From: a phage
NCBI GenBank assembly: GCA_027262695.1
Contig: GCA_027262695.1_4722.1
Length of the DNA: 64,000 bases
Reading direction: 5' to 3' (one strand)
Shown here: positions 1 to 11,363 of the stretch, one piece after another
How the letters are laid out: the number at the start of each line of letters is the position of its first letter
Numbering within the stretch: the first letter of the stretch is position 1
Translations under genes and position numbers: made by a program
The notes under the pieces: model-generated
Database searches by the model: none
Told to the model about the DNA's origin: nothing
The model's input: the letters and a program-made list of their open reading frames with translations, nothing else

Positions 1-2358
1 GTAGTTCGCTTTAAGATGTTCTAATAACGGAGTAAGTCCGCCTAGGTAACTTAGCACAACGCCAACCGGGATACGTACGCCCATGAACTCAAGGTCAGCG
101 GCTTCGATAGGCATCTTCGCGGCATTGATACCGAAGAAATCAGGGAACGTTCCAACCGGCGTTGGGGTTTGATTCGGTTCGTAAACGTACAACTGATTCT
201 GATTATCCACCGCCAGGAATTCACCGTTGGTGTTTTTGGCGAACGTTAAGAATCCACCCGCCAGCTGTTCGGTGAACAAATCTGCGCCGATATGTTCTGG
301 CAACGTTTTGATATCGAGGCGTATGTCCCAATCCGCAAATTGAATTTGGGTGTAGTTACGCGCAAGCACAGCGAAGTAATACGGAACTTTGACAGCCGGA
401 TCAAAGACGTTACCACGTTTTAAGGTGGTTAGCGGGGAGGTTTTATCGTAATACATCGCTGTGAGTTGACGTGTTAACCAACGACCAGCATTATTCACGA
501 CACGCTCTGAACGTTTAACAAACACCTTACCGTAGGCGGTACTCAACGCAACTTCGGATGATGATACCTTTCTGATAGGTTTATCAACACGTTGTTTACG
601 CATCCGGTATTTAATACCGTTAACGACATAAATACCGTCCTTACGAACCTTCGGTAACATCACCGGGAACGTCGTTGGAACACCACCCACCGGAGCCAGC
701 TTGATCGTGATGACCTGGTAATCACCCATCACGTCAACAACATCTTCAACTTTATATCCGGTAACAGGATAGCCTGCTTGTTGCACTGCCACAACGGCCG
801 CTGCGATGTCCTTTTGCATCACGTGTTCAACGTAATGTTTATCCCACACCGCAAGCGTCGATTTACATAGGCTCTTATCGACGATAACATCCGCTTCCGG
901 CATAACCTTTGCTGGCGCTAATTTCGCGGCTTTTGGTTTAACCTCAACGTATTCAGCAAGCGTTAGTCCAGAACCGTCAGGTGCTTCAATTTCATGAATC
1001 GCGTCAGCGTTACGCATCGCGGCTTTATATTGAACGCCGCTTAATTGACCCGCATCCGCGAGGTCGCTCGCACGTACCAACACCGCATCGGATAACGACT
1101 GAATATATTCACCGTGCGTTTTCGGCAACGTTGCCGCATCGAAGACATCATCTTTTTCTTCCGGCACGTCGTCGTTGACGACCTCAAAGAGATCATCGGT
1201 GATGTCTTGATCTTCGTCCGGTTGAAAATCGGGCTGAACTTCAACGCCCGGGACTTCACGAACATCTTCGAACGCACGCTCAACAACCGCGTTCCATGCT
1301 TCAGCGTCGTCATCCTCATCCGATCCTCCGATCAACTCGCTTTCCAGTTCATCGGGGTCAAGAACGGTATCGAGATCCTCACCGTTAGGAAGCACGACAT
1401 CACGTTCATCGTACTCCGCATCGGGACTGTCTGCGAGAATATCACGCTCCTGACGAAGAACCTGCTCCTCTTCTTGTTTCTGTTCTTCTTCGTTGGCGCT
1501 CTGCGACCACAGACGGGTTACCGCCATCATCCAACGACGCTGGAATGTTTCAAGCGTTGTCTTATCAAGTTCCTCGCCTTCCTTCGCCAAACCCGAACGC
1601 CATTCTTCCATTAAACCAAGATTCAGGGTAAAGAAATAGACGCCGTCCGTAAATACAACGTTAAGCTTATCCAGCGAAGCACGATCCAATGACGCCATCG
1701 TACTGTTCTCACGATCGACACCTAACCAGCGGAAGAAGTCAAAGAACGACAGCTCCTCTGAGGTGGCAAAATTCATGAGGTTATTACGGGTTGGGGCTTG
1801 TTGTGTCGTACGCATCAACGATATCTTCGGTAACGTCGACGGGATACGGAATAACAAGAACTGCTGACGGTCGCTTTGCTTGGCGATCTCGTTTGCTTGC
1901 GTCCAAATCGTTTTACGCACGTTGAACCACTCATCATACCAACGTGTTAGCGTCGGACGATAGATGTACATGTGGTTAAGATGCGCATAGTTAGCCACGA
2001 TCTGGGCGTTGATGTTCTTCTCAACCTTGCTAAGATCGGTGACCAAACGAAAACGACGATGCGATGCACGGTAATCCAGTTTCGCACGCGGTAGCTGAAA
2101 TCGCTGATCGCGTCGAGGCGCGCCTTGCTTGGTTGCGAGGTCATCCGCGAACGATATCCAAAGCTGTGCACTTTCTTTGCTCAGCATGTATTCGTTTTCA
2201 GGAGGACCTATTAACGAAGGATCGGTTGCTGTGTAATGATAAACAGCATAACGCGGCAGCTGCAAAAGCTGCACCAAACGCAATCTAGGTGATAATAACT
2301 CTTGATAACGTCGTACACCGAATTGTCTGTAGTAATCAAGGTATTTAAGTTTTGCCAT
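1..2358 (-). CDS. large hypothetical protein, 5' part only (>785 aa, runs off window start); contains long acidic low-complexity stretch
   Basis: Uninterrupted minus-strand reading frame from ATG at 2358-2356 to position 1 (manually translated, MAKLKYLDYYRQFGVRRYQELL...); GGAG 8 nt upstream of ATG; not in ORF track because no stop in window. May alternatively be the 3' exon of the intron-containing gene upstream. Confidence 0.6.
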   Translation of the reverse strand, partial: MAKLKYLDYYRQFGVRRYQELLSPRLRLVQLLQLPRYAVYHYTATDPSLIGPPENEYMLSKESAQLWISFADDLATKQGAPRRDQRFQLPRAKLDYRASHRRFRLVTDLSKVEKNINAQIVANYAHLNHMYIYRPTLTRWYDEWFNVRKTIWTQANEIAKQSDRQQFLLFRIPSTLPKISLMRTTQQAPTRNNLMNFATSEELSFFDFFRWLGVDRENSTMASLDRASLDKLNVVFTDGVYFFTLNLGLMEEWRSGLAKEGEELDKTTLETFQRRWMMAVTRLWSQSANEEEQKQEEEQVLRQERDILADSPDAEYDERDVVLPNGEDLDTVLDPDELESELIGGSDEDDDAEAWNAVVERAFEDVREVPGVEVQPDFQPDEDQDITDDLFEVVNDDVPEEKDDVFDAATLPKTHGEYIQSLSDAVLVRASDLADAGQLSGVQYKAAMRNADAIHEIEAPDGSGLTLAEYVEVKPKAAKLAPAKVMPEADVIVDKSLCKSTLAVWDKHYVEHVMQKDIAAAVVAVQQAGYPVTGYKVEDVVDVMGDYQVITIKLAPVGGVPTTFPVMLPKVRKDGIYVVNGIKYRMRKQRVDKPIRKVSSSEVALSTAYGKVFVKRSERVVNNAGRWLTRQLTAMYYDKTSPLTTLKRGNVFDPAVKVPYYFAVLARNYTQIQFADWDIRLDIKTLPEHIGADLFTEQLAGGFLTFAKNTNGEFLAVDNQNQLYVYEPNQTPTPVGTFPDFFGINAAKMPIEAADLEFMGVRIPVGVVLSYLGGLTPLLEHLKANY

Positions 2359-2562
2359 GGGTTAGGCTCCACGAGGTCCCGTTAAGTTGCGTAATAGGAA
2401 CGCAACCGTATCGTAACCAATATCAATGTTGAATTTATTTTTACCGCTTACCCAGAAAGCACGCTTCTTGTGCGAGTTGGTAATTTCGTCGATGGCTTCC
2501 ATGGAATAAAGAACGTTAACCGAGACCGTATCACCGTCGAACCTTGTCTTCGCCTCAGTTCG

Positions 2563-3060
2563 CTACGCTGAGACCGCCTGCATGGATACGTACATGACAG
2601 GCTGCTTGCACTTTCATGCAAGAGGAGACTATATCAAACCGGCAGCTTCACCTTCTCGATCGTATCGAGAATGCGGTGCTGAAGTATTCTTCAGCAGCAC
2701 CTGCTACGGTAACCTACACTTCGAAGACGCTTGTCCTCTACAGGGTGGTAAATCCCTTAGTCGTTGAACCTGCGTTGTTTCCCATTCTTGGTTGCAAGAA
2801 TGCCGTATTACTACGCAACAACCAGGCTGCTGATTGCCCATTGTCTCGCACCTTAGCACCGCTTACGCGGCTTTTCTTTCAGCCTAAGCCTCTTACGGAG
2901 GTAGTGCATCTCAACTGTTGTTTCTGCCTTTCGGCACCCCATGGGTCGTTGAGCTTTAGGGGTTCCCAGCAATTCGTAGGTTTTTCAAGCACTCCCTTTC
3001 GGGAATACCGGACAACTTCCCTTGAAAAAAGTCTTTATTTTTCAAGGACTTATCCCCGCC
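2563..3060 (-). ncRNA. candidate group I self-splicing intron (boundaries approximate)
   Basis: Minus-strand core elements in canonical order: P AATTGCTGGGAA (2974-2963), Q AATCAGCAGCC (2835-2825), R GTTCAACGACTAAGGG (2769-2754), S GATATAGTCTCC (2635-2624); R GACTA pairs with S TAGTC (P7). No ORF >60 aa on this strand across ~600 bp between two long same-frame ORFs. Confidence 0.6.
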
Positions 3061-4518
3061 GAGTCCCTGGAGGTACGGGCTCGGAATGCAAACCGTTTCT
3101 ACGAACGATGCTTTTTGTTTCCAATCAGGGTATTCCCATGCGATATATCGTTCGTCAGTAATCGGTTCCCAATTACTATCAAGTTCTGTCTTGGGAGAAG
3201 CGTTAACGGTTGTACGCGCATAACAGGTTAACGGAATGACTGACTGCATGCCCGATACCGGATAACGTGTTACCATCGCAGCCAGGTTGTTCCAGTATTT
3301 ATATCCTGCGATATAGATAAGCTCAGTATAAGTAATGGGGTGAACATCCGCACCAGGTTTGTTAAGCATCTCTGGCGGTATTTCACTCATACCGCGGAAA
3401 AGTCGGAATGAATCGTTGTTTACATAAACCAAACAGAGATAACGACCATTCACCATGATAGGTTCGTTACGTACGCCTGGATCGCTTAGCGTGTTCAATA
3501 AACGTTCGATACCATCCCAAGTAGTAAAGTCATCGATGGTGTCAGGATCAAGTACGACTCGTTCACGTTCCATCGTTTCGGTATCGATAAGCTCAACCTC
3601 GGTAACATCACGGACGAAGATCTCTTGCAAAATACCAGTACGTAATGCGTGTTGCGTTATCGGAAGGGCTGCTTTGCTCATCTGGTATAGACCAAGCTGT
3701 ACAGATGTACATGACGTTTGGTTTGGAGAACCGAGAACCTCCGTTGTGGGGTTAATTGCCGAAATAACGTTACGGGTTGAGTTCCAAACACGACGTGAAC
3801 CGAACTTACCTTGGAAGATCCCTTTCTTACCCTGGAACATATCCAACAGCAATGCGTAGATATCATTGAAGGTTCTTTGCAGGCTCCAGCGCTGTCCGTC
3901 GTAGACAGGATCGTTGTAGTCCTTTAATCCATCGGGAACGGTATTGGAGATAGCAAGGAAACGACGGTAGAGCTCCGTGATTTCTTGTTCGCTTTCATAC
4001 CCGCCTTCCTTTACTTCTATTTCACGAAGACCAGCAGGTAACACCAATAAATGACGGGTCATCGCTTTGAACATGTTTTCTTCGACAACTTTAATACGCA
4101 GTTCTCGTTGCGCTGAACCTGTTGAAACGAACTTGATCTCCGCAACGTGTTGTGCGAAGAAACCGTAGCCGGTTTGTCCCGTTAATGCGTCAGCAGCAAC
4201 GAAATCACGCTGTTCTGGATCCCATCGTGCATAAGCTTTACCGGACATGATATCGCCATAAAGGTGTTTCAATCGAATAAGGCGATCGTAAATGACCGGA
4301 TGCAAGATTTCCACTTTACACTCGATGACCGCAAAGCGGCGATCACGATCTTCACTACCCGCACTCCCAAAGATGGTGTATGAATAAAAACCATCATCAT
4401 GGAAATTACCCGTACTCGGGTCACGGATACTCATGCTGGTAATCTTAGGAAGGAAACGCAACTGCTGCTTATCAAGATGCAGTATACTGATATTGAACGG
4501 CTCTCTGACTTTAGCCAT
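2956..4518 (-). CDS. hypothetical protein, putative 5' exon of intron-interrupted gene (last ~30-45 codons before the stop at 2956 are probably intron read-through)
   Basis: ORF track 2956..4551; start moved to ATG 4518 (MAKVREPF) preceded by AAGGAG with 7-nt spacer. ORF continues through the intron P element into a stop. Confidence 0.55.
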   Translation of the reverse strand: MAKVREPFNISILHLDKQQLRFLPKITSMSIRDPSTGNFHDDGFYSYTIFGSAGSEDRDRRFAVIECKVEILHPVIYDRLIRLKHLYGDIMSGKAYARWDPEQRDFVAADALTGQTGYGFFAQHVAEIKFVSTGSAQRELRIKVVEENMFKAMTRHLLVLPAGLREIEVKEGGYESEQEITELYRRFLAISNTVPDGLKDYNDPVYDGQRWSLQRTFNDIYALLLDMFQGKKGIFQGKFGSRRVWNSTRNVISAINPTTEVLGSPNQTSCTSVQLGLYQMSKAALPITQHALRTGILQEIFVRDVTEVELIDTETMERERVVLDPDTIDDFTTWDGIERLLNTLSDPGVRNEPIMVNGRYLCLVYVNNDSFRLFRGMSEIPPEMLNKPGADVHPITYTELIYIAGYKYWNNLAAMVTRYPVSGMQSVIPLTCYARTTVNASPKTELDSNWEPITDERYIAWEYPDWKQKASFVETVCIPSPYLQGLGGDKSLKNKDFFQGKLSGIPERECLKNLRIAGNP

Positions 4519-4691
4519 GGATGCACTCCTTAAATAAGGCGGCGGTATCATCTGAACACATGAGAGACGTAATGGGTGAAGCCATCACCCATCGCTTCCC
4601 TGCTTGATGCGAGGAAGGTATTAAATTACGTACCTGTCCGATGGCCTCGAACAGGCGATGTATGAAGCTATGCTTCAATTTGGAGGTATAC

Positions 4692-7600
4692 ATGGTAGAT
4701 AAAACCCGTGTTGAGGGTGATGATAATTGGGATAACTGGGATGAGGACTTCTCCCTGGATCTCGATTTTGATGAACCCAAAGACGACCGTAAGCCCATAA
4801 CCCGTTATGCAATAGGTGTCGCCAAAGGGGCTGCTGAAGATCTTACTTCCTACGAAAGAATGAAGGAGATCGCCAGAAACGCATTACCTAAGGGTTATAG
4901 CGACGGTATGGATCTTATCGATTCCGCCGTCGGATCCACGAAGGAACTATACAATGAAGCCGTTCGTGACATTCTTCCGAAGGTACAAAGCTCAAAACGG
5001 TTAGCCGCACAACTGACGAAAAAATACCGTGCGAGCATGCCCGATTTCTCGAAGAAAATTATCGAGCGTTGGGAGCAAGAAGCCAAGGAAGAAGACGAAC
5101 GTAAACAGGCGGAAGCCGATCTTAAACAACGCATGGCGAATGCAGGTGATGAAGAAATCGCTCGCAAGGTCGCTGAGGCGTTAGGAGAAGCGGCTAACCA
5201 GAACGCGGATCAGTTTGCAGAACAACAAGCAAAAGAAAGTATCCGTGACGATATTGCTGATAAACGTTATAATGTCACCAACAAACAGATGAGCGCGATG
5301 CAGGAAGGCATCGCCAAGATGGTTGGTTTCAATAACGAATTCGCCGCACGCTATATGCGTAAAAGCCTGGAACTAAAATACCGTTCTTTGGCGATACAAC
5401 GCGCGAGTTTCGATCAGCATAAAAAGTTAGCCGAAGTCTATATCGGTTTATTACAGAACATCCAAAAGAACACGGCTTTACCGGATGCGGCTAAAGCAAA
5501 AATGTCGGAAGAATTTCGTCGCACAGCGTACCAACGTTTCTTTGGTAACGCATTGAATGCGATGAGTTCTTTCGAGAACCGTTTCTTTGCTGATGTTAAG
5601 AAAAACCTTGCAACCAATGCGTTGGGTGCGTTGAAAGGTGTTGTGTCTGGCGCACACGACGCCCTCTCCGGTTTAAACGAAGCACGCGACTCGATGTCCA
5701 TGATGGACGGTATGGGGTCAGAAGGCGATATTAAGGAAATGCAAGGGAAGATGCTGGGTCAGTTGATCGGCTCAACCGTTGCACCATGGATGGCGAATAA
5801 AGGCATGACGGCATTGCGGGATTTAGCAAAACGTCATCCTAACGCTAAATTCGCCAACGCGTTAAAAGCGGTCGATCAAGGCGGTGAAGCTGCTGCTTAT
5901 ACAACGCGTAACGTTGGGAAACTGCTGCAAGAAGATCTTCGTAAAAACGAATTCAACCTCAGCGATCCCTTCTACAAACAGTTCCTGCGTGGGGCTGGAC
6001 GTTGGGCCTTCAATCTGGACGGTGGTCGTAACTTCCGTGTGATGAACGACACCGCGGAGACGTTAGCTGAACAAACATCTTTCGATGGTTTAACCTATCG
6101 TAGCATCAACGAGGTCATTCCCGGATTTCTTGCTCGTATACTGAAAAGCACTGAAGGTATCCGTACCGGTGAAAATGATCCTGATTACGAGGTCTATGAT
6201 GGCATCAGCGGGCAATTCGTTGCTCAACGTACCCGCGAACAAGGTGTAACCGACACCCTCTTTAACAAACGTTCGTTCGGTTATTACGCCGGTCGTTTTA
6301 ATGAAGTTATCTCGGTTATCGATCCCGATAAACAGCTGTCAGAAAAGGCAAGGAAAGCCTTGGCTAAACAGTTAGCACGCGACAGCGATGCGAACATGGC
6401 TTTCGATCCTGCTCGATATACCGACGAAAGTAACTTTGATCGCAGCATCGATAGAGACGCCATTAAAGAACTTTCTGCGTATTTCAAAGATCGTTACGGC
6501 ATTCGTGACGATGTTGATGATGAAGGTAACCGTCAACAGGTTATTGAAAACCGTGGGCAGTACTACACGGAACGTAACCGCGCTGATCTGCGGTACGGTA
6601 ATCTGAAATCCTTGCAGCCGGATATCCAACGCAACCTTAACCTTCTGAAACGTACCGGTGATGTTCAATACCTGGAACGCATCGGGATCGTAACAAGAAA
6701 CAGCGATGGCAGTTATTCGGTTAATCACGATCGTTACTTCTCTGAAATCGATCAATACATCGACCGACCGGAATACGCTGACCGTGGTGATGTTAACACG
6801 CGACTCAGTGCCCAACAGACCAGGGCGTTGGCGTTAGGCTATCGTGACGACGTTGCGTCAAACGCTGACGTACAAAATCGTGCGTTACCAAACCTCGATC
6901 GAACAACGGTCGGAACGGTAAACATCGATGAGAACATCGGATACGAGAAATGGTGGAACGATGCGGGTGTTATCACCACATCGCTTGAAGACCAAAATCG
7001 AGCATGGCAAGAACTCTATCTTGAAGCGCTTCAGGAAGCTTCGCATCAACGTGAAACGATGCTGGAACTTCTGAAAGCGATCTCAGAAAAAGAATGGGGT
7101 GGTAGCGGCGTTGGCCGCCAGGGCGAACCTGGCGGTGAAGAAAGTGATGATCGCTCTATGTTAGGTCGGATCTCCGACCTAACACTAGGTAAAGCCGGTA
7201 GCTATGCCTGGAAAGGTGCAAAAGGAGCTGCCAAGTTCGGATGGAAATGGGGTCGAAAAGCGGCGACATGGGGCGCAAAACGTACGTGGGGAAGCTTCGT
7301 AAACTCAGCGCGTCGAATTATCAACTTCAACCGTTTTGTGTTCGGTGCGTTATCCAAGGTCGATCAAGTTCCGTTTGACATTTACGTTAAAGGTGAAGAT
7401 CGTCCACGTATCTTAGCTGCAAAACTTCGTCAAGGTCTGTATTTCGATGAAGCCACCGGCAAAGCCGTCAAACGGATGAAGGATATTAAAGGTCCGTTAG
7501 TTGATGCTGACGGCAACATCGTCATCAGCGCTGAAGATATCGAGAAGGGATTGATTACGCGCGCTGGACGTGCCTTCGAAAACTCCGGTTTGAAAGCATG

Positions 7601-10600
7601 GGCACGTGAAGGTATCAACGGCATCACCACGGTATTAAGTTTACCAAGACTTTTAAAACGCGGTGCTACGGAGCTTTACAAGCATTTCGATAAAACACCT
7701 GACGTATACGTGACTGGTGAATCCACTCCACGTCTGCTTTCTCTGGTGATGGCGGCAGGCGGTTATTTCCGTAAGTCCGATGGGAAAGTCATCAAGCATC
7801 TGGAAGACATCGACGGTGATGTGGTTGACGCACAAGGAAACGTCATCCTGACCCACGCTGATATGCAGAAAGGGTTGGTCGATAAATACGGTAAGAAGAT
7901 ACGTCGCCTGAAAGAAAAGCTGATCAACTTCGGTGTGAAAGCTTTCACCTTACCGTTAACCTTATTGCGTAAGACAAAAGACATCCTGAAGAATCTCCCC
8001 ACGAAAGCCATGAACGGGTTGCGTCGTATGGGCCTGAACTTCCGTTTACCGGAAGAGGTGCTTATCGGTACAACCGCAGGCATGGTGGATCGTCTCGACG
8101 CTATTTATCAGCTTCTTGATAAACGCATGCCAGGTGGGGATAAGGATTATCGTGATTGGAACGGTGATGGTGTTCGTGAAGGATCGCTTGAAGATCTGAA
8201 ACGTAAACGCGCTGAGAAAGAAGGAGAAAAAGGAGAAGGTACAGGTAAAGGATCCGGGAAAGGAGAAGAGAAGGAGAAGAAAAAAGGAATTCTTGGGAGC
8301 CTTTTCGACATGCTTGGTGACACCGCACTTGGTAAACGTTTAATGGCGAGTCCGCTTGGAAAGATTCTGGGTGGCCTTGGATCCATTCTCAGCGGTGGTG
8401 CATCATTAACGGGGTTACTTGGGAAAGGTTTGCTTAAAGGCTCAGGCGCACTCCTCAGAGGGGGTTTAAGTGCTGCGGGTTGGTTAGGACGTGGTGCCCT
8501 GATGGCAGGCGGTGCTGCGCTTAATGCGGTAGGAGGATTATCCGGGCTTGGTGCTGCGCTTATCTCCCCGGTTGGGTTAGCGATTGCGGGCGGCGCATTA
8601 GCTGCCTATGCGGGTTGGAAAATCTATCAACATTTCGCTGATAAGCCTGACCCGATGCAGAAACTTCGTCTTATTGCATACGGTGCAAAAGGGGATGATA
8701 AGGACTTCAACAAGAAGTTATTGCAAACCGAAACCTACCTTACCGACCATGTGGTCATGACGGGAGATACCATCGGATTCAATCCAAAAGCAGATTCTGA
8801 AAAGATTCTTGAAATCTGGGAACTGTCATTGGAAGATACTGACCGGATGAATGAATGGAAGCGCTGGTATCTACATCGCTTTATCCCCGTTTTCGCTCGT
8901 GCGTTTAAACTCTGGAAAGAGCACATGCCGGACGAGAAGAAGTTCATGGAGATGGACGACTACCCCAACGGTGAGAACAAAGTCAAATGGTCAGAAGCCT
9001 TCATCTGGCCATCGGATAGTCCAGACAGCCCGTACTATGTTGAAGCTAACCCGTTAGGTTCGGCTGGCGCAACGTTATACATCGCGGGACAGGATGTTAA
9101 AAAGCTCATGGAAAGCCAGCTGGAAGTCATCAGGAAGGAATATCAAAACCAGATCAAGAAATACACGCACGATGAAGCGATTAAAGACTGGTCGAAGCTG
9201 TCTGACGCCCAACGTAAGTCCGTTGCGCCTAACGCGTTACGTGGACAGAAAGCCTCTTTACGTTTCAGCGATAACAAGTATAACAGTGCGGGTGTTAAAG
9301 GTCGTCAGAAACTGGACGCTACTGCGGTTGTTGAAAGCGTGGATCGTCGCGGTAAGAAATGGATGGCCGGTGGGTACATCGATGAACTTACCAGTTTACG
9401 TATCCGCGCCTACGGGTTAGAGGTTCCGCTGTTAAGCCAAATCAAGGTATTGATGGAACTGGAAGACGCGGTTGAACCTGGCGTTGTTGCTGAAGGTAAA
9501 GGCGTCAAATACGGCGGTAATCTCGCGGAGCTGTATAAGAAGTTCGCATCGAAATTCGGTCGGGATGTCAACGGCAAACAAGACCAGAACATCTGGTTTG
9601 CCTGGATGAACAACCGTTTCTTGCCGGTCTTCTTAACGTACTATCAGCAAGTTGGCGAGATGGGCGGACAAGGGCTGTTATCAGATGTTGTACAGAATCT
9701 GAAAGACAGCCAGCGTTGGGAAATCGGTGAGGCGTTGGTTGCTGCGCAATACAAGGATGAGAAGGGTGCGCTACAGCCGGTATGGTCGTGGAACAGTTGT
9801 GGTTTCTCTGGCACCAAAGCAAACATGTCCAGCAGTTCAACCAAGAGCCAACTCGATCTGTTAAAAGAATACGCAGATAAAGAGAAGGTTCGTGAGAAGA
9901 ACGCTGAAGCATCGCAGGAGGATGAAGATAAATTATCGAAAATCCAAGAGCAGTTGATGAAGCAAGCGGGATATGAGAAGAAGGACGGTGTTTGGCAGAA
10001 GAAATCACGTATCACGGGTGGGATGAGCAACGCGGAGGCGAACTACAATCCGAACCGTAACGAGGTTGGCAGAAGTAGCTTTACTGCTTCAGCAACCTCC
10101 AGCGCAGGTTTGGGTAGTGGTGGACCGGATATCACCGGGTTACCGAACATGGGACTGAAGAAACCCGCATCAGGTCCTGGTCCAGAAGCGGGTCGTCGTG
10201 CGGCAATTAAATCAGCGGTGAAGCACGGTATTACCGATCCGATGGAAATGGCGATGTTCTTATCGAACCTCGAACATGAATCCGGTAACTACAGGTATGT
10301 CCGCGAACTTAACTACACAAAACCCGACAGTCTGAAGAAAGCGTTCAGTCGTAAATTCAGGGATGAGCAGGACGCTGCCCAGACCATCAGCATGGGTCCA
10401 GAGGCGGTATTCGAACGTGTGTATGGAATGCGTAAGGATCTGGGAAATACCCAGAAAGGTGACGGAGCGAAATATCTGGGGCGTGGTTATATCCAGGTTA
10501 CAGGTAAAGCCAACTACGCACGATTGTCGAAGATCCTGAATAAAGATCTGGTTAGCGATCCATCGTATTTGGAAACCCCAGAAGGTGCAGCCGAAGGGAG

Positions 10601-11363
10601 TGTTGCGTGGTGGCTTAACAGGGGTAACGTATTACGCGATCCCGCAAAGCGTGGCGATGTTCGCCAGGTTCGTTACCTGGTTAACGGGGGGTATAACGGG
10701 CTACGCGATGTTGAGCAACGTTCAGCGTATTGGATTCAAGCTGCTAAAAGCGGTACATTGAAGAAAATGATGGATGAGGTTGCAGGTTCAACCTCAGACG
10801 ATCAAGCTGAAGGTCCGTCTACCGCCAGCCAAGTGAAGAACGAGGAGGCGCAAGAAACCAACAGCACACCAACATCAAGCAACGATCCGCAAGCACCGTC
10901 GGCAACCGCGACGCCTGAAGTCAAACCGTCAGCGGCCTCCGGTACCGCACCGGCACCCGGAACGGCAACACCGACACCAGGAAGTTTCGATACCGCAAAA
11001 GCTGCTGCTGGACAACCAGCGTCAACACCAGCGCCTAGCGAATTACCGTCAAACCCTGGTGCAAATCGAGGAATTTCAGTTCCAAATACACCTGCACAGG
11101 TTGCGCAGTCCGCAACACAAACATCGGCAGCAAGTGAAAACTTCTACGGTAGTGCAGGTGAGATTCTTCGTCAGCAGTTGACCGTGCAACAAAACATCGA
11201 GAAGAACACCGGTAAGACCAACGAACTGATCTCAGAATTGATCCAGGCTGTTAAAGGATCAACGATCGGTAAAGGTTCGACAGGATCTTCTCAACAACAG
11301 ACGATGTCGCTACCTAATCGTCCGCAAGGAATCTCTCCAACACGGACAAGGTACGCGCAGTAG
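4692..11363 (+). CDS. giant virion-associated protein (tape-measure-like) with GH19-family lysozyme/chitinase-like domain
   Basis: 2240-aa ORF; start set at ATG 4692 (GGAGG 5 nt upstream), giving 2223 aa. GH19-like motifs LEHESGN and KYLGRGYIQVTGKANY...SVAWWLNRG (about 10200-10750); Gly/Ala/Leu-rich hydrophobic segment about 8287-8630; Pro/Thr/Ser/Ala-rich tail about 10840-11140. Confidence 0.6.
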   Translation: MVDKTRVEGDDNWDNWDEDFSLDLDFDEPKDDRKPITRYAIGVAKGAAEDLTSYERMKEIARNALPKGYSDGMDLIDSAVGSTKELYNEAVRDILPKVQSSKRLAAQLTKKYRASMPDFSKKIIERWEQEAKEEDERKQAEADLKQRMANAGDEEIARKVAEALGEAANQNADQFAEQQAKESIRDDIADKRYNVTNKQMSAMQEGIAKMVGFNNEFAARYMRKSLELKYRSLAIQRASFDQHKKLAEVYIGLLQNIQKNTALPDAAKAKMSEEFRRTAYQRFFGNALNAMSSFENRFFADVKKNLATNALGALKGVVSGAHDALSGLNEARDSMSMMDGMGSEGDIKEMQGKMLGQLIGSTVAPWMANKGMTALRDLAKRHPNAKFANALKAVDQGGEAAAYTTRNVGKLLQEDLRKNEFNLSDPFYKQFLRGAGRWAFNLDGGRNFRVMNDTAETLAEQTSFDGLTYRSINEVIPGFLARILKSTEGIRTGENDPDYEVYDGISGQFVAQRTREQGVTDTLFNKRSFGYYAGRFNEVISVIDPDKQLSEKARKALAKQLARDSDANMAFDPARYTDESNFDRSIDRDAIKELSAYFKDRYGIRDDVDDEGNRQQVIENRGQYYTERNRADLRYGNLKSLQPDIQRNLNLLKRTGDVQYLERIGIVTRNSDGSYSVNHDRYFSEIDQYIDRPEYADRGDVNTRLSAQQTRALALGYRDDVASNADVQNRALPNLDRTTVGTVNIDENIGYEKWWNDAGVITTSLEDQNRAWQELYLEALQEASHQRETMLELLKAISEKEWGGSGVGRQGEPGGEESDDRSMLGRISDLTLGKAGSYAWKGAKGAAKFGWKWGRKAATWGAKRTWGSFVNSARRIINFNRFVFGALSKVDQVPFDIYVKGEDRPRILAAKLRQGLYFDEATGKAVKRMKDIKGPLVDADGNIVISAEDIEKGLITRAGRAFENSGLKAWAREGINGITTVLSLPRLLKRGATELYKHFDKTPDVYVTGESTPRLLSLVMAAGGYFRKSDGKVIKHLEDIDGDVVDAQGNVILTHADMQKGLVDKYGKKIRRLKEKLINFGVKAFTLPLTLLRKTKDILKNLPTKAMNGLRRMGLNFRLPEEVLIGTTAGMVDRLDAIYQLLDKRMPGGDKDYRDWNGDGVREGSLEDLKRKRAEKEGEKGEGTGKGSGKGEEKEKKKGILGSLFDMLGDTALGKRLMASPLGKILGGLGSILSGGASLTGLLGKGLLKGSGALLRGGLSAAGWLGRGALMAGGAALNAVGGLSGLGAALISPVGLAIAGGALAAYAGWKIYQHFADKPDPMQKLRLIAYGAKGDDKDFNKKLLQTETYLTDHVVMTGDTIGFNPKADSEKILEIWELSLEDTDRMNEWKRWYLHRFIPVFARAFKLWKEHMPDEKKFMEMDDYPNGENKVKWSEAFIWPSDSPDSPYYVEANPLGSAGATLYIAGQDVKKLMESQLEVIRKEYQNQIKKYTHDEAIKDWSKLSDAQRKSVAPNALRGQKASLRFSDNKYNSAGVKGRQKLDATAVVESVDRRGKKWMAGGYIDELTSLRIRAYGLEVPLLSQIKVLMELEDAVEPGVVAEGKGVKYGGNLAELYKKFASKFGRDVNGKQDQNIWFAWMNNRFLPVFLTYYQQVGEMGGQGLLSDVVQNLKDSQRWEIGEALVAAQYKDEKGALQPVWSWNSCGFSGTKANMSSSSTKSQLDLLKEYADKEKVREKNAEASQEDEDKLSKIQEQLMKQAGYEKKDGVWQKKSRITGGMSNAEANYNPNRNEVGRSSFTASATSSAGLGSGGPDITGLPNMGLKKPASGPGPEAGRRAAIKSAVKHGITDPMEMAMFLSNLEHESGNYRYVRELNYTKPDSLKKAFSRKFRDEQDAAQTISMGPEAVFERVYGMRKDLGNTQKGDGAKYLGRGYIQVTGKANYARLSKILNKDLVSDPSYLETPEGAAEGSVAWWLNRGNVLRDPAKRGDVRQVRYLVNGGYNGLRDVEQRSAYWIQAAKSGTLKKMMDEVAGSTSDDQAEGPSTASQVKNEEAQETNSTPTSSNDPQAPSATATPEVKPSAASGTAPAPGTATPTPGSFDTAKAAAGQPASTPAPSELPSNPGANRGISVPNTPAQVAQSATQTSAASENFYGSAGEILRQQLTVQQNIEKNTGKTNELISELIQAVKGSTIGKGSTGSSQQQTMSLPNRPQGISPTRTRYAQ

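Follow-up and report, generated by a model that had tools for sequence, protein, structure and literature searches.

An ORF-less group I intron splits the gene for a virion RNA polymerase subunit of a Goslar-like jumbo phage

A group I intron of 510 nt that lacks an ORF occupies positions 2542..3051 on the minus strand of a 64,000-nt stretch of phage DNA (contig GCA_027262695.1_4722.1, hereafter the window). It begins with AAGUCC and ends with GACAAGG, its terminal omega-G being position 2542. The gene that it splits encodes the virion RNA polymerase beta-prime N-terminal subunit, a homolog of phiKZ gp180, and the intron falls within NADFDGD, the universal magnesium-binding motif of beta-prime, after its first D and ahead of its F. 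The reading that we favor, with a probability of roughly 0.93, is that window 3051..2542 is an ORF-less intron of the subgroup IA type that would splice by the standard pathway and would belong to a mobile lineage; splicing in vivo, catalysis, and mobility are deduced here from sequence comparison. The source of the window is a jumbo phage whose DNA is ~84-92% identical to that of Escherichia phage vB_EcoM_Goslar (Goslar), a nucleus-forming jumbo phage of E. coli. The window intron is an ordinary, endonuclease-less copy, and its lineage had earlier been annotated in Goslar and proposed for phiKZ.

A first-pass annotation, made from the letters of the window, had proposed a group I intron splitting a large minus-strand gene on the strength of four core elements: P (AATTGCTGGGAA, 2974-2963), Q (AATCAGCAGCC, 2835-2825), R (GTTCAACGACTAAGGG, 2769-2754), and S (GATATAGTCTCC, 2635-2624). 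All four lie on the minus strand exactly where they had been placed, and both the intron and the split gene are borne out by the covariance-model match and by a spliced product that is colinear with its homologs. The Rfam search that the annotation had recommended was positive: model RF00028 matched the window at 3037..2605 (-) over its full length (1-253 of 253) with 58.4 bits against a gathering score of 50 (E 3.1e-12). Elsewhere, the same model scored 67.7 bits in Goslar, 88.4 in phage OMKO1, and 92.2 in phiKZ. The match at 3037..2605 was the sole Rfam hit in the window, also with the cutoff relaxed to E<=1, and no tRNAs were found there.

The boundaries were set by two intron-less Goslar-like genomes (L006 and L010) together with the phiKZ-type phage KTN4. 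The intron is exactly the stretch missing from L006 and L010, and L007 carries these 510 nt as well. In a blastn comparison with L006, window 4678..3053 and 2541..2 align to adjoining sequence, with the break at 3053|2541. The empty site reads GGT GGG GAC TTT GAT GGT GAT in L006 and L010 and GCG GAT TTC GAC GGG GAC in KTN4. The base preceding the intron is U in every copy with that end readable, and the terminal base is G in all nine 3' ends read (seven Goslar-type, OMKO1, and phiKZ). The range originally proposed, 2563-3060, was thus close; the actual intron occupies 2542-3051.

Ribozyme architecture and predicted splicing pathway

The 510-nt intron folds at -180.5 kcal/mol, compared with -150.3 +/- 6.8 kcal/mol for shuffled sequences (z -4.4; none of 100 shuffles was as good). 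The unconstrained MFE fold contains, in canonical order, P2, P3, P4, P5, P6, P7.1, P7.2, P3', P8, P9, P9.1, and P9.2. P7 is a pseudoknot, hence beyond the reach of an MFE fold, and was judged by complementarity: GACUA (2762-2758) in R is complementary to UAGUC (2631-2627) in S, the pairing that the first-pass annotation had suggested, and both strands are invariant in the five aligned copies. R and S would form P7 as the putative guanosine-binding helix.

P1 (3010..3055, minus strand) is assigned to the exon end GGAU (3055-3052) plus AA (3051-3050), which pair with the guide UUGUCC (3015-3010); its wobble pair, read from the sequence, is U3052.G3013. In the window this helix is short, with four exon-guide pairs and two intron pairs, and in Goslar and L012 exon position -4 is U, leaving P1 one pair fewer. 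It is extended by an 11-bp hairpin (3048-3038 with 3029-3019). The guide GUCC (3013-3010) lies directly 5' of P2, an arrangement found in all seven copies with this region readable, which belong to two divergent types and include phiKZ and OMKO1. Because GUCC beside P2 is common to Goslar, phiKZ, and OMKO1, the first hairpin of the Rfam alignment (3033-3013) was dropped as P1 in favor of GGAUAA/UUGUCC with the extension hairpin. No convincing P10 was found; a pairing of exon 2 UUC with GAA at 3019-3017 was rejected, since this GAA is not next to the guide. The MFE fold also pairs UUGUC of the guide region (3011-3015) with GACAA (2544-2548), shortly ahead of the terminal G. The corresponding segment of L011, L013, and L014 is GAUAA, which is identical to the sequence at the 5' splice site, GAU|AA, and makes a P1-like mimic at the 3' end of the intron.

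The remaining helices follow along the minus strand. The P2 hairpin (GGUAUUCCC-GAAA-GGGAGUGCU, 2988..3009) comes from the MFE fold and shows one C-G to U.G change in relatives. The Rfam alignment places the P3 5' strand (2982-2975, partner 2718-2711) and J3/4-P4, which is element P (AAUUGCUGGGAA, 2974-2963), at 2963..2982. P5 and its large extension (2837..2962, MFE fold) comprise several hairpins with GNRA-type loops; in relatives, the extension loop shows a tetraloop swap from GUAA to CAUG and the insertion of a 36-nt hairpin (in L013 and probably L011 too). According to the Rfam alignment and the fold, region 2768..2835 holds element Q, which is the 3' strand of P4 (AAUCAGCAGCC, 2835-2825), together with a three-way junction at P6 (2827-2768); among relatives it varies in its loop only (CAAC, AAAA, GUUG, or UUUG). 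Element R with the P7 5' strand (GACUA) is followed by P7.1 (2757-2742) and P7.2 (2738-2723), the whole spanning 2723..2769 (Rfam alignment and fold). P7.1 (AGGG...CCCU) and P7.2 (GAGGAC-AAGC-GUCUUC) were both drawn by the unconstrained fold and form a 37-nt insertion in the Rfam alignment; P7.2 shows a compensatory A-U to G-C change between OMKO1 and phiKZ. In the classification of Michel and Westhof, P7.1 and P7.2 between P7 and the P3 3' strand are reportedly the hallmark of subgroup IA, and by these two predicted helices the window intron classes as subgroup-IA-type. In the fold, 2638..2718 is made up of the P3 3' strand (2718-2711), followed by P8 and its pair of peripheral hairpins (2710-2638). 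Element S (2635-2624, Rfam alignment) with the P7 3' strand UAGUC (2631-2627) is followed, at 2552..2622, by P9 (2622-2605, GAAA loop), P9.1 (2602-2576), and P9.2 (2574-2552), placed by the Rfam alignment and the fold.

The ribozyme core is invariant across all copies with the core readable. Variation among the seven Goslar-type copies consists mostly of loop changes, G.U changes, and indels of whole hairpins: both peripheral P8 hairpins (P8a and P8b) are cleanly deleted in L012, and P8b is deleted in L014. Among five Goslar-type introns, ~96% identical, 98.3% of alignment cells are paired; both-sided covariation within this clade (0 of 155 pairs) has no power at ~96% identity. A MAFFT/RNAalifold alignment of Goslar-type and phiKZ-type introns is usable for P2-P4, P7.1, and P7.2 only, its 3' half being misaligned and unreliable; in P3 it gave three both-side compensatory pairs between the two types.

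No coding-strand ORF of >=40 aa lies wholly inside the intron except for a 51-aa GTG frame, which traverses core helices and was rejected as an endonuclease candidate; the window intron has no homing endonuclease ORF of its own. In the wider interval 2359-3060 there is no minus-strand ORF of >60 aa, as the first-pass annotation had said.

In the predicted pathway, the guide GUCC (3013-3010) would pair with the exon end GGAU, U3052 making the U.G wobble. Exogenous guanosine, bound in P7 (GACUA/UAGUC), would attack after U3052, and the freed 3'-OH of U3052 would attack after the terminal G2542. Ligation of the exons (GGC GGG GAU + UUC GAC GGU GAU) would then yield an mRNA for a 548-aa protein with GLGGD|FDGDTV at the junction.

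Could the fold be genuine, and the intron nevertheless be unable to self-splice autonomously? Efficient splicing in the cell would then depend on a protein cofactor, candidates for which would be a chaperone of phage or host origin or the endonuclease of a relative, acting like a maturase. Many group I introns require protein helpers, P1 is short, and P10 was not found. However, the core elements are a perfect consensus match, and large peripheral extensions of P5, P6, P8, and P9 usually stabilize the core without proteins. ORF-less copies are present in an essential gene in at least four independent genomes (the window, L007, L012, and L013), and their intact persistence in these four argues for their splicing. 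The phiKZ gp179 intron was predicted in 2002, and a long-read transcriptome study found no splicing evidence at this homologous site, with no spliced reads under its conditions (PMC10914365); this is a caveat for the predicted splicing, although the catalytic motif could be produced by splicing only. We regard dependence on a cofactor as unlikely, and splicing by the standard pathway as the better account of the window intron.

The split gene and its product

Exon 1 (3052..4518, minus strand) contains 489 codons, MAKVREPF...PYLQGLGGD; its last base is the 5' splice-site U3052, and it matches PHROG 2986 at positions 3-484. We take its start to be ATG 4518 and not 4551: an AAGGAG Shine-Dalgarno sequence lies 7 nt upstream, and the choice agrees with Goslar gp205 (MAKVREPF) and with the IMG/VR relatives. 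Exon 2 (2362..2541, minus strand) contains 59 codons followed by TAA (FDGDTVSVNVLYSMEAIDEITNSHKKRAFWVSGKNKFNIDIGYDTVAFLLRNLTGPRGA) and matches PHROG 2986 at positions 484-538. It adjoins exon 1 directly in L006, L010, KTN4, and 246 of 285 phage records, to which a 152-aa query across the junction aligns in one piece. The spliced 548-aa product matches PHROG 2986 (a family of 539 positions labeled 'RNA polymerase beta subunit') at positions 3-538 in one stretch with 602.7 bits, compared with 542.4 bits for exon 1 alone. In the alignment to homologs that the first-pass annotation had recommended, these proteins are colinear with the spliced translation and not with the unspliced one.

The junction of the spliced protein reads ...PYLQGLGGD|FDGDTVSVNV...; the segment of the predicted product that spans it is ...GLGGDFDGDTVSV..., and FDGDTVSVNVLYSMEAIDEITNSHK is a stretch belonging to the same predicted 548-aa protein. 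At the DNA level, the predicted ligated-exon junction is ...GGCGGGGAU|UUCGACGGUGAU..., in a sequence 510 nt shorter than the genomic one. The gene was identified as beta-prime from PHROGs and from weak, junction-spanning matches to two solved beta-prime chains, 8qma_T (plastid RpoC1) and 7s01_d (the beta-prime N-terminal subunit of phage AR9), in which the junction aligns to NADFDGDQMAVHV. Pfam searches with exon 1, exon 2, and the spliced protein returned nothing useful, the only match being a sub-threshold 'Microcin'.

The long reading frames flanking the intron do share one genomic frame (positions 4551, 2541, and 2358), as had been observed at the outset. The 531-aa ORF (4551..2956) runs into the intron and terminates there, at the predicted stop at 2956; its last 31 codons are intron read-through, within the 30-45 estimated earlier. 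The unspliced RNA would encode a 520-aa product (489 exon-1 residues and 31 of read-through) without the metal-binding motif, and splicing would therefore be obligatory for an active polymerase. Two arrangements had been offered for the 3' side. The one with a short 3' exon ending at 2362 and a separate gene from ATG 2358 holds, except that the exon begins at 2541 and not just after the TAG at 2563. The other, which takes the long frame 1..2358 to be the 3' exon, is ruled out by synteny and family membership: PHROG 2986 takes exon 1 (3-484) and the short ORF (484-538), whereas the 2358 frame belongs to PHROG 3148 (E 1e-185). This next gene (1..2358, minus strand), which leaves the window, lies outside the split gene and encodes the virion RNA polymerase beta subunit, a homolog of phiKZ gp178 and Goslar gp207, as identified from PHROG 3148, the Goslar annotation, and the same gene order in phiKZ and KTN4.

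The main value of these results is a correction of annotation. The deposited proteins of the window phage, Goslar (gp205), and phiKZ (gp180) stop in the intron and lack the 59 C-terminal residues with the catalytic FDGD. The Goslar record has an ncRNA feature 'Intron_gpI' (HOV27_gs002 / Goslar_00229) between gp205 and gp207, with gp206 inside; it differs from the assignment made here in marking the Rfam match only and leaving the exons unjoined. Consequently, deposited gp205 (YP_009820914.1, 502 aa; Goslar 2532-4040) ends with 13 residues translated from the intron (QGKANKMPVFWQI) and is without the 59-residue exon 2 and the catalytic motif; the correct product has 548 aa. Deposited phiKZ gp180 is exon 1 only, and exon 2 (~60 codons including FDGD) is unannotated. 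In the Goslar papers, gp205 and gp207 appear as subunits of the virion polymerase and an intron goes unmentioned, and our literature search found no description of the Goslar or OMKO1 introns, turning up only the phiKZ gp179 prediction and the work on PhiPA3. The spliced 548-aa sequence is the proper input for structural, proteomic, and phylogenetic work on these polymerases.

The same deposited entries could be read in another way, namely that the intron is a dead relic and the gene is permanently split into two polypeptides or is a pseudogene. On the one hand, the RNA polymerase subunits of jumbo phages are already split into several polypeptides (PMC7598289), and GenBank has Goslar gp205 as a stand-alone 502-aa protein. 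On the other hand, this split would fall inside the DFDGD metal-binding motif, and no start codon or ribosome-binding site precedes FDGD, the first ATG in the exon-2 frame (2502) being downstream of the motif. Furthermore, the frame is kept across the intron, the core shows no change in any readable copy, and Goslar virions contain gp205, as a subunit of their RNA polymerase. We therefore consider a relic very improbable. The 181-aa plus-strand ORF at 2616..3161, antisense to the intron, is judged spurious because indels of 49 and 28 nt in relatives would shift its frame and the entire region is missing from L006 and L010; with no PHROG match for this ORF and a covariance-model E of 3e-12 for the intron, we give practically no weight to its being coding and the intron likeness incidental.

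Allele states in Goslar-type and phiKZ-type phages

Window positions 1-7000 are 84-88% identical to Goslar DNA and map to 208-217 kb of its record, and window 30-45 kb maps to 3.6-16 kb with 92% identity over 76% of the stretch; the window therefore spans the ends of the Goslar record. With 76% of the 30-45 kb region alignable, at 92% identity, the window phage is a distinct Goslar-like phage. The phage collection contained no record closer to it than Goslar; the nearest relative found is the metagenome contig JACXXQ010000003.1 (L012), with 93-97% identity.

Eight further Goslar-like genomes were drawn from IMG/VR and metagenomes, one of which (L008) is Goslar itself. The ten Goslar-like loci comprise two empty sites (L006, an IMG/VR contig, and L010, a metagenome contig), four ORF-less introns (the window; L007, 510 nt; L012, 8391-8852, 462 nt; and L013, 1324-1869, 546 nt), one intron with an endonuclease (Goslar), two introns whose 5' part is not covered (L011 and L014), and L008. 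Presence and absence of the intron are thus both found at one site among close relatives. The Goslar intron shares with that of the window the gene, the insertion site (GAU|UUC), and a 472-nt core (guide sequence through terminal G) that is 96.4% identical; however, it is 2044 nt long, compared with 510 nt, because a 490-aa HNH homing endonuclease, gp206, occupies its P1 loop. Gp206 matches HNH_3 (E 3e-8), NUMOD1, and PHROG 59 (HNH endonuclease family). Where Goslar has the 1.57-kb gp206 cassette, the window has 38 nt (3051-3014), mostly the P1 extension hairpin.

The phiKZ-type phages show the same three allele states (endonuclease, ORF-less, and empty) at the same place of the orthologous gene, after the first D of DFDGD and before its F. 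In phiKZ (L009, NC_004629), gp180 ends with ...GGG GCG GAT and is followed by a 1443-nt group I intron (4347-5789) that contains the HNH gene gp179, and then by TTC GAC GGG GAC. In OMKO1 (L003, 2783-3263), a 481-nt ORF-less intron is inserted at the same nucleotide; the first codons of gp179 are still there, which indicates that the ORF was lost by a 962-nt deletion. KTN4 has no intron at this site. The phiKZ-type introns share with the window the GUCC guide beside P2 and the IA-type layout with P7.1 and P7.2; however, they are too divergent from it to be detected by blastn, and their core is ~332 nt compared with 472, most peripheral extensions being absent.

Sequence identity is unevenly distributed around the insertion site. 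The window and the Goslar clade share 96.4-96.6% identity in the intron core but only 83-84% in exon 1, a gap that suggests recent horizontal spread or strong constraint. Downstream, window 2308-2541 (exon 2 and the first ~50 nt of the next gene) is 96.7-99.4% identical among the window, Goslar, L007, and the intron-less L006, and synonymous change there is ~6-fold lower than in exon 1; this could be a homing co-conversion tract or could reflect constraint at the nucleotide level. Upstream, the last ~100 nt of exon 1 (window 3052-3150), which adjoin the insertion site, are the most divergent part of the gene, with 70-76% identity. The window and L007, both with the 510-nt ORF-less intron, share a CAG (Gln) codon in place of the GCC (Ala) of Goslar and L006, although exon 1 of L007 is otherwise Goslar-like; the common CAG may be a trace of short 5' co-conversion or of selection at the endonuclease target. 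The empty sites (L006 5459-5476; L010 about 300-320) read GAC TTT GAT, compared with GAT TTC GAC at the spliced junction, which amounts to three synonymous changes <=6 nt from the insertion point; one of them puts C in place of the U required for the P1 wobble. These empty-site alleles may be endonuclease-resistant sites.

Mobility and relation to other phage introns

The intron probably belongs to a mobile lineage, since the Goslar copy has a 490-aa HNH/NUMOD endonuclease, the window copy has none, and close relatives have the site empty. The window copy itself would be mobile by recombination only, possibly with help in trans from the endonuclease of a co-infecting relative.

The T4 introns in td, nrdB, and sunY (subgroup IA2) are phage group I introns at conserved sites of essential genes, have P7.1 and P7.2, and occur with or without homing endonuclease ORFs, but their host genes are different. 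T4 splicing acts on RNA under translation. In nucleus-forming phages, transcription is kept apart from ribosomes, so splicing in the window phage would be uncoupled from translation.

Another case, related but separate, is the gp210 intron of PhiPA3, which splits the gene for the beta subunit of the virion RNA polymerase (gp211/209) (Birkholz et al. 2024, PMC11620839). Common to both systems are a group I intron lineage with an HNH endonuclease (a nicking enzyme in PhiPA3), an essential virion RNA polymerase gene, a nucleus-forming phage, and insertion at conserved catalytic aspartates (PMC11620839). PhiPA3 gp210 nicks phiKZ gp178 and gives a competitive advantage in co-infection (PMC11620839). 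The two differ in that the PhiPA3 intron lies in the beta subunit gene (the gp178 homolog) at another site, about residue 1072, a part of the beta gene that falls outside the window, and in that the window copy is without an endonuclease.

Rather than being just a passive remnant, the ORF-less intron might be a player in an intron/endonuclease contest among co-infecting nucleus-forming phages of E. coli. The occupied DFDGD site would shield the polymerase gene from a Goslar-like gp206-type HNH endonuclease, and the near-identical intron and 3' flank in 84%-identical genomes would reflect recent endonuclease-driven transfer with one-sided co-conversion. In E. coli phages, the contest would thus parallel in nature the interference between PhiPA3 and phiKZ, and in the ribosome-free phage nucleus splicing would precede export, as in eukaryotes. 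That all these parts hold jointly seems doubtful to us, and we offer the proposal as a tentative one. Whatever its fate, empty, ORF-less, and HNH-endonuclease alleles at the same nucleotide in two phage genera offer a compact natural series in which intron homing, the loss of endonucleases, and competition between nucleus-forming phages can be studied. The kind of element is not new; what the series adds to the work on PhiPA3 gp210 is a second polymerase gene and phages of E. coli.

The neighborhood of the split gene is also conserved. Divergent from the polymerase gene lies a 2240-aa ORF (window 4641-11363, plus strand), a homolog of Goslar gp204 ('tail fiber protein' / putative chitinase, COG3179) and also of phiKZ gp181, the tail-associated endolysin. 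The gene order gp181 - gp180 - (intron) - gp178 is kept from phiKZ to the window phage.
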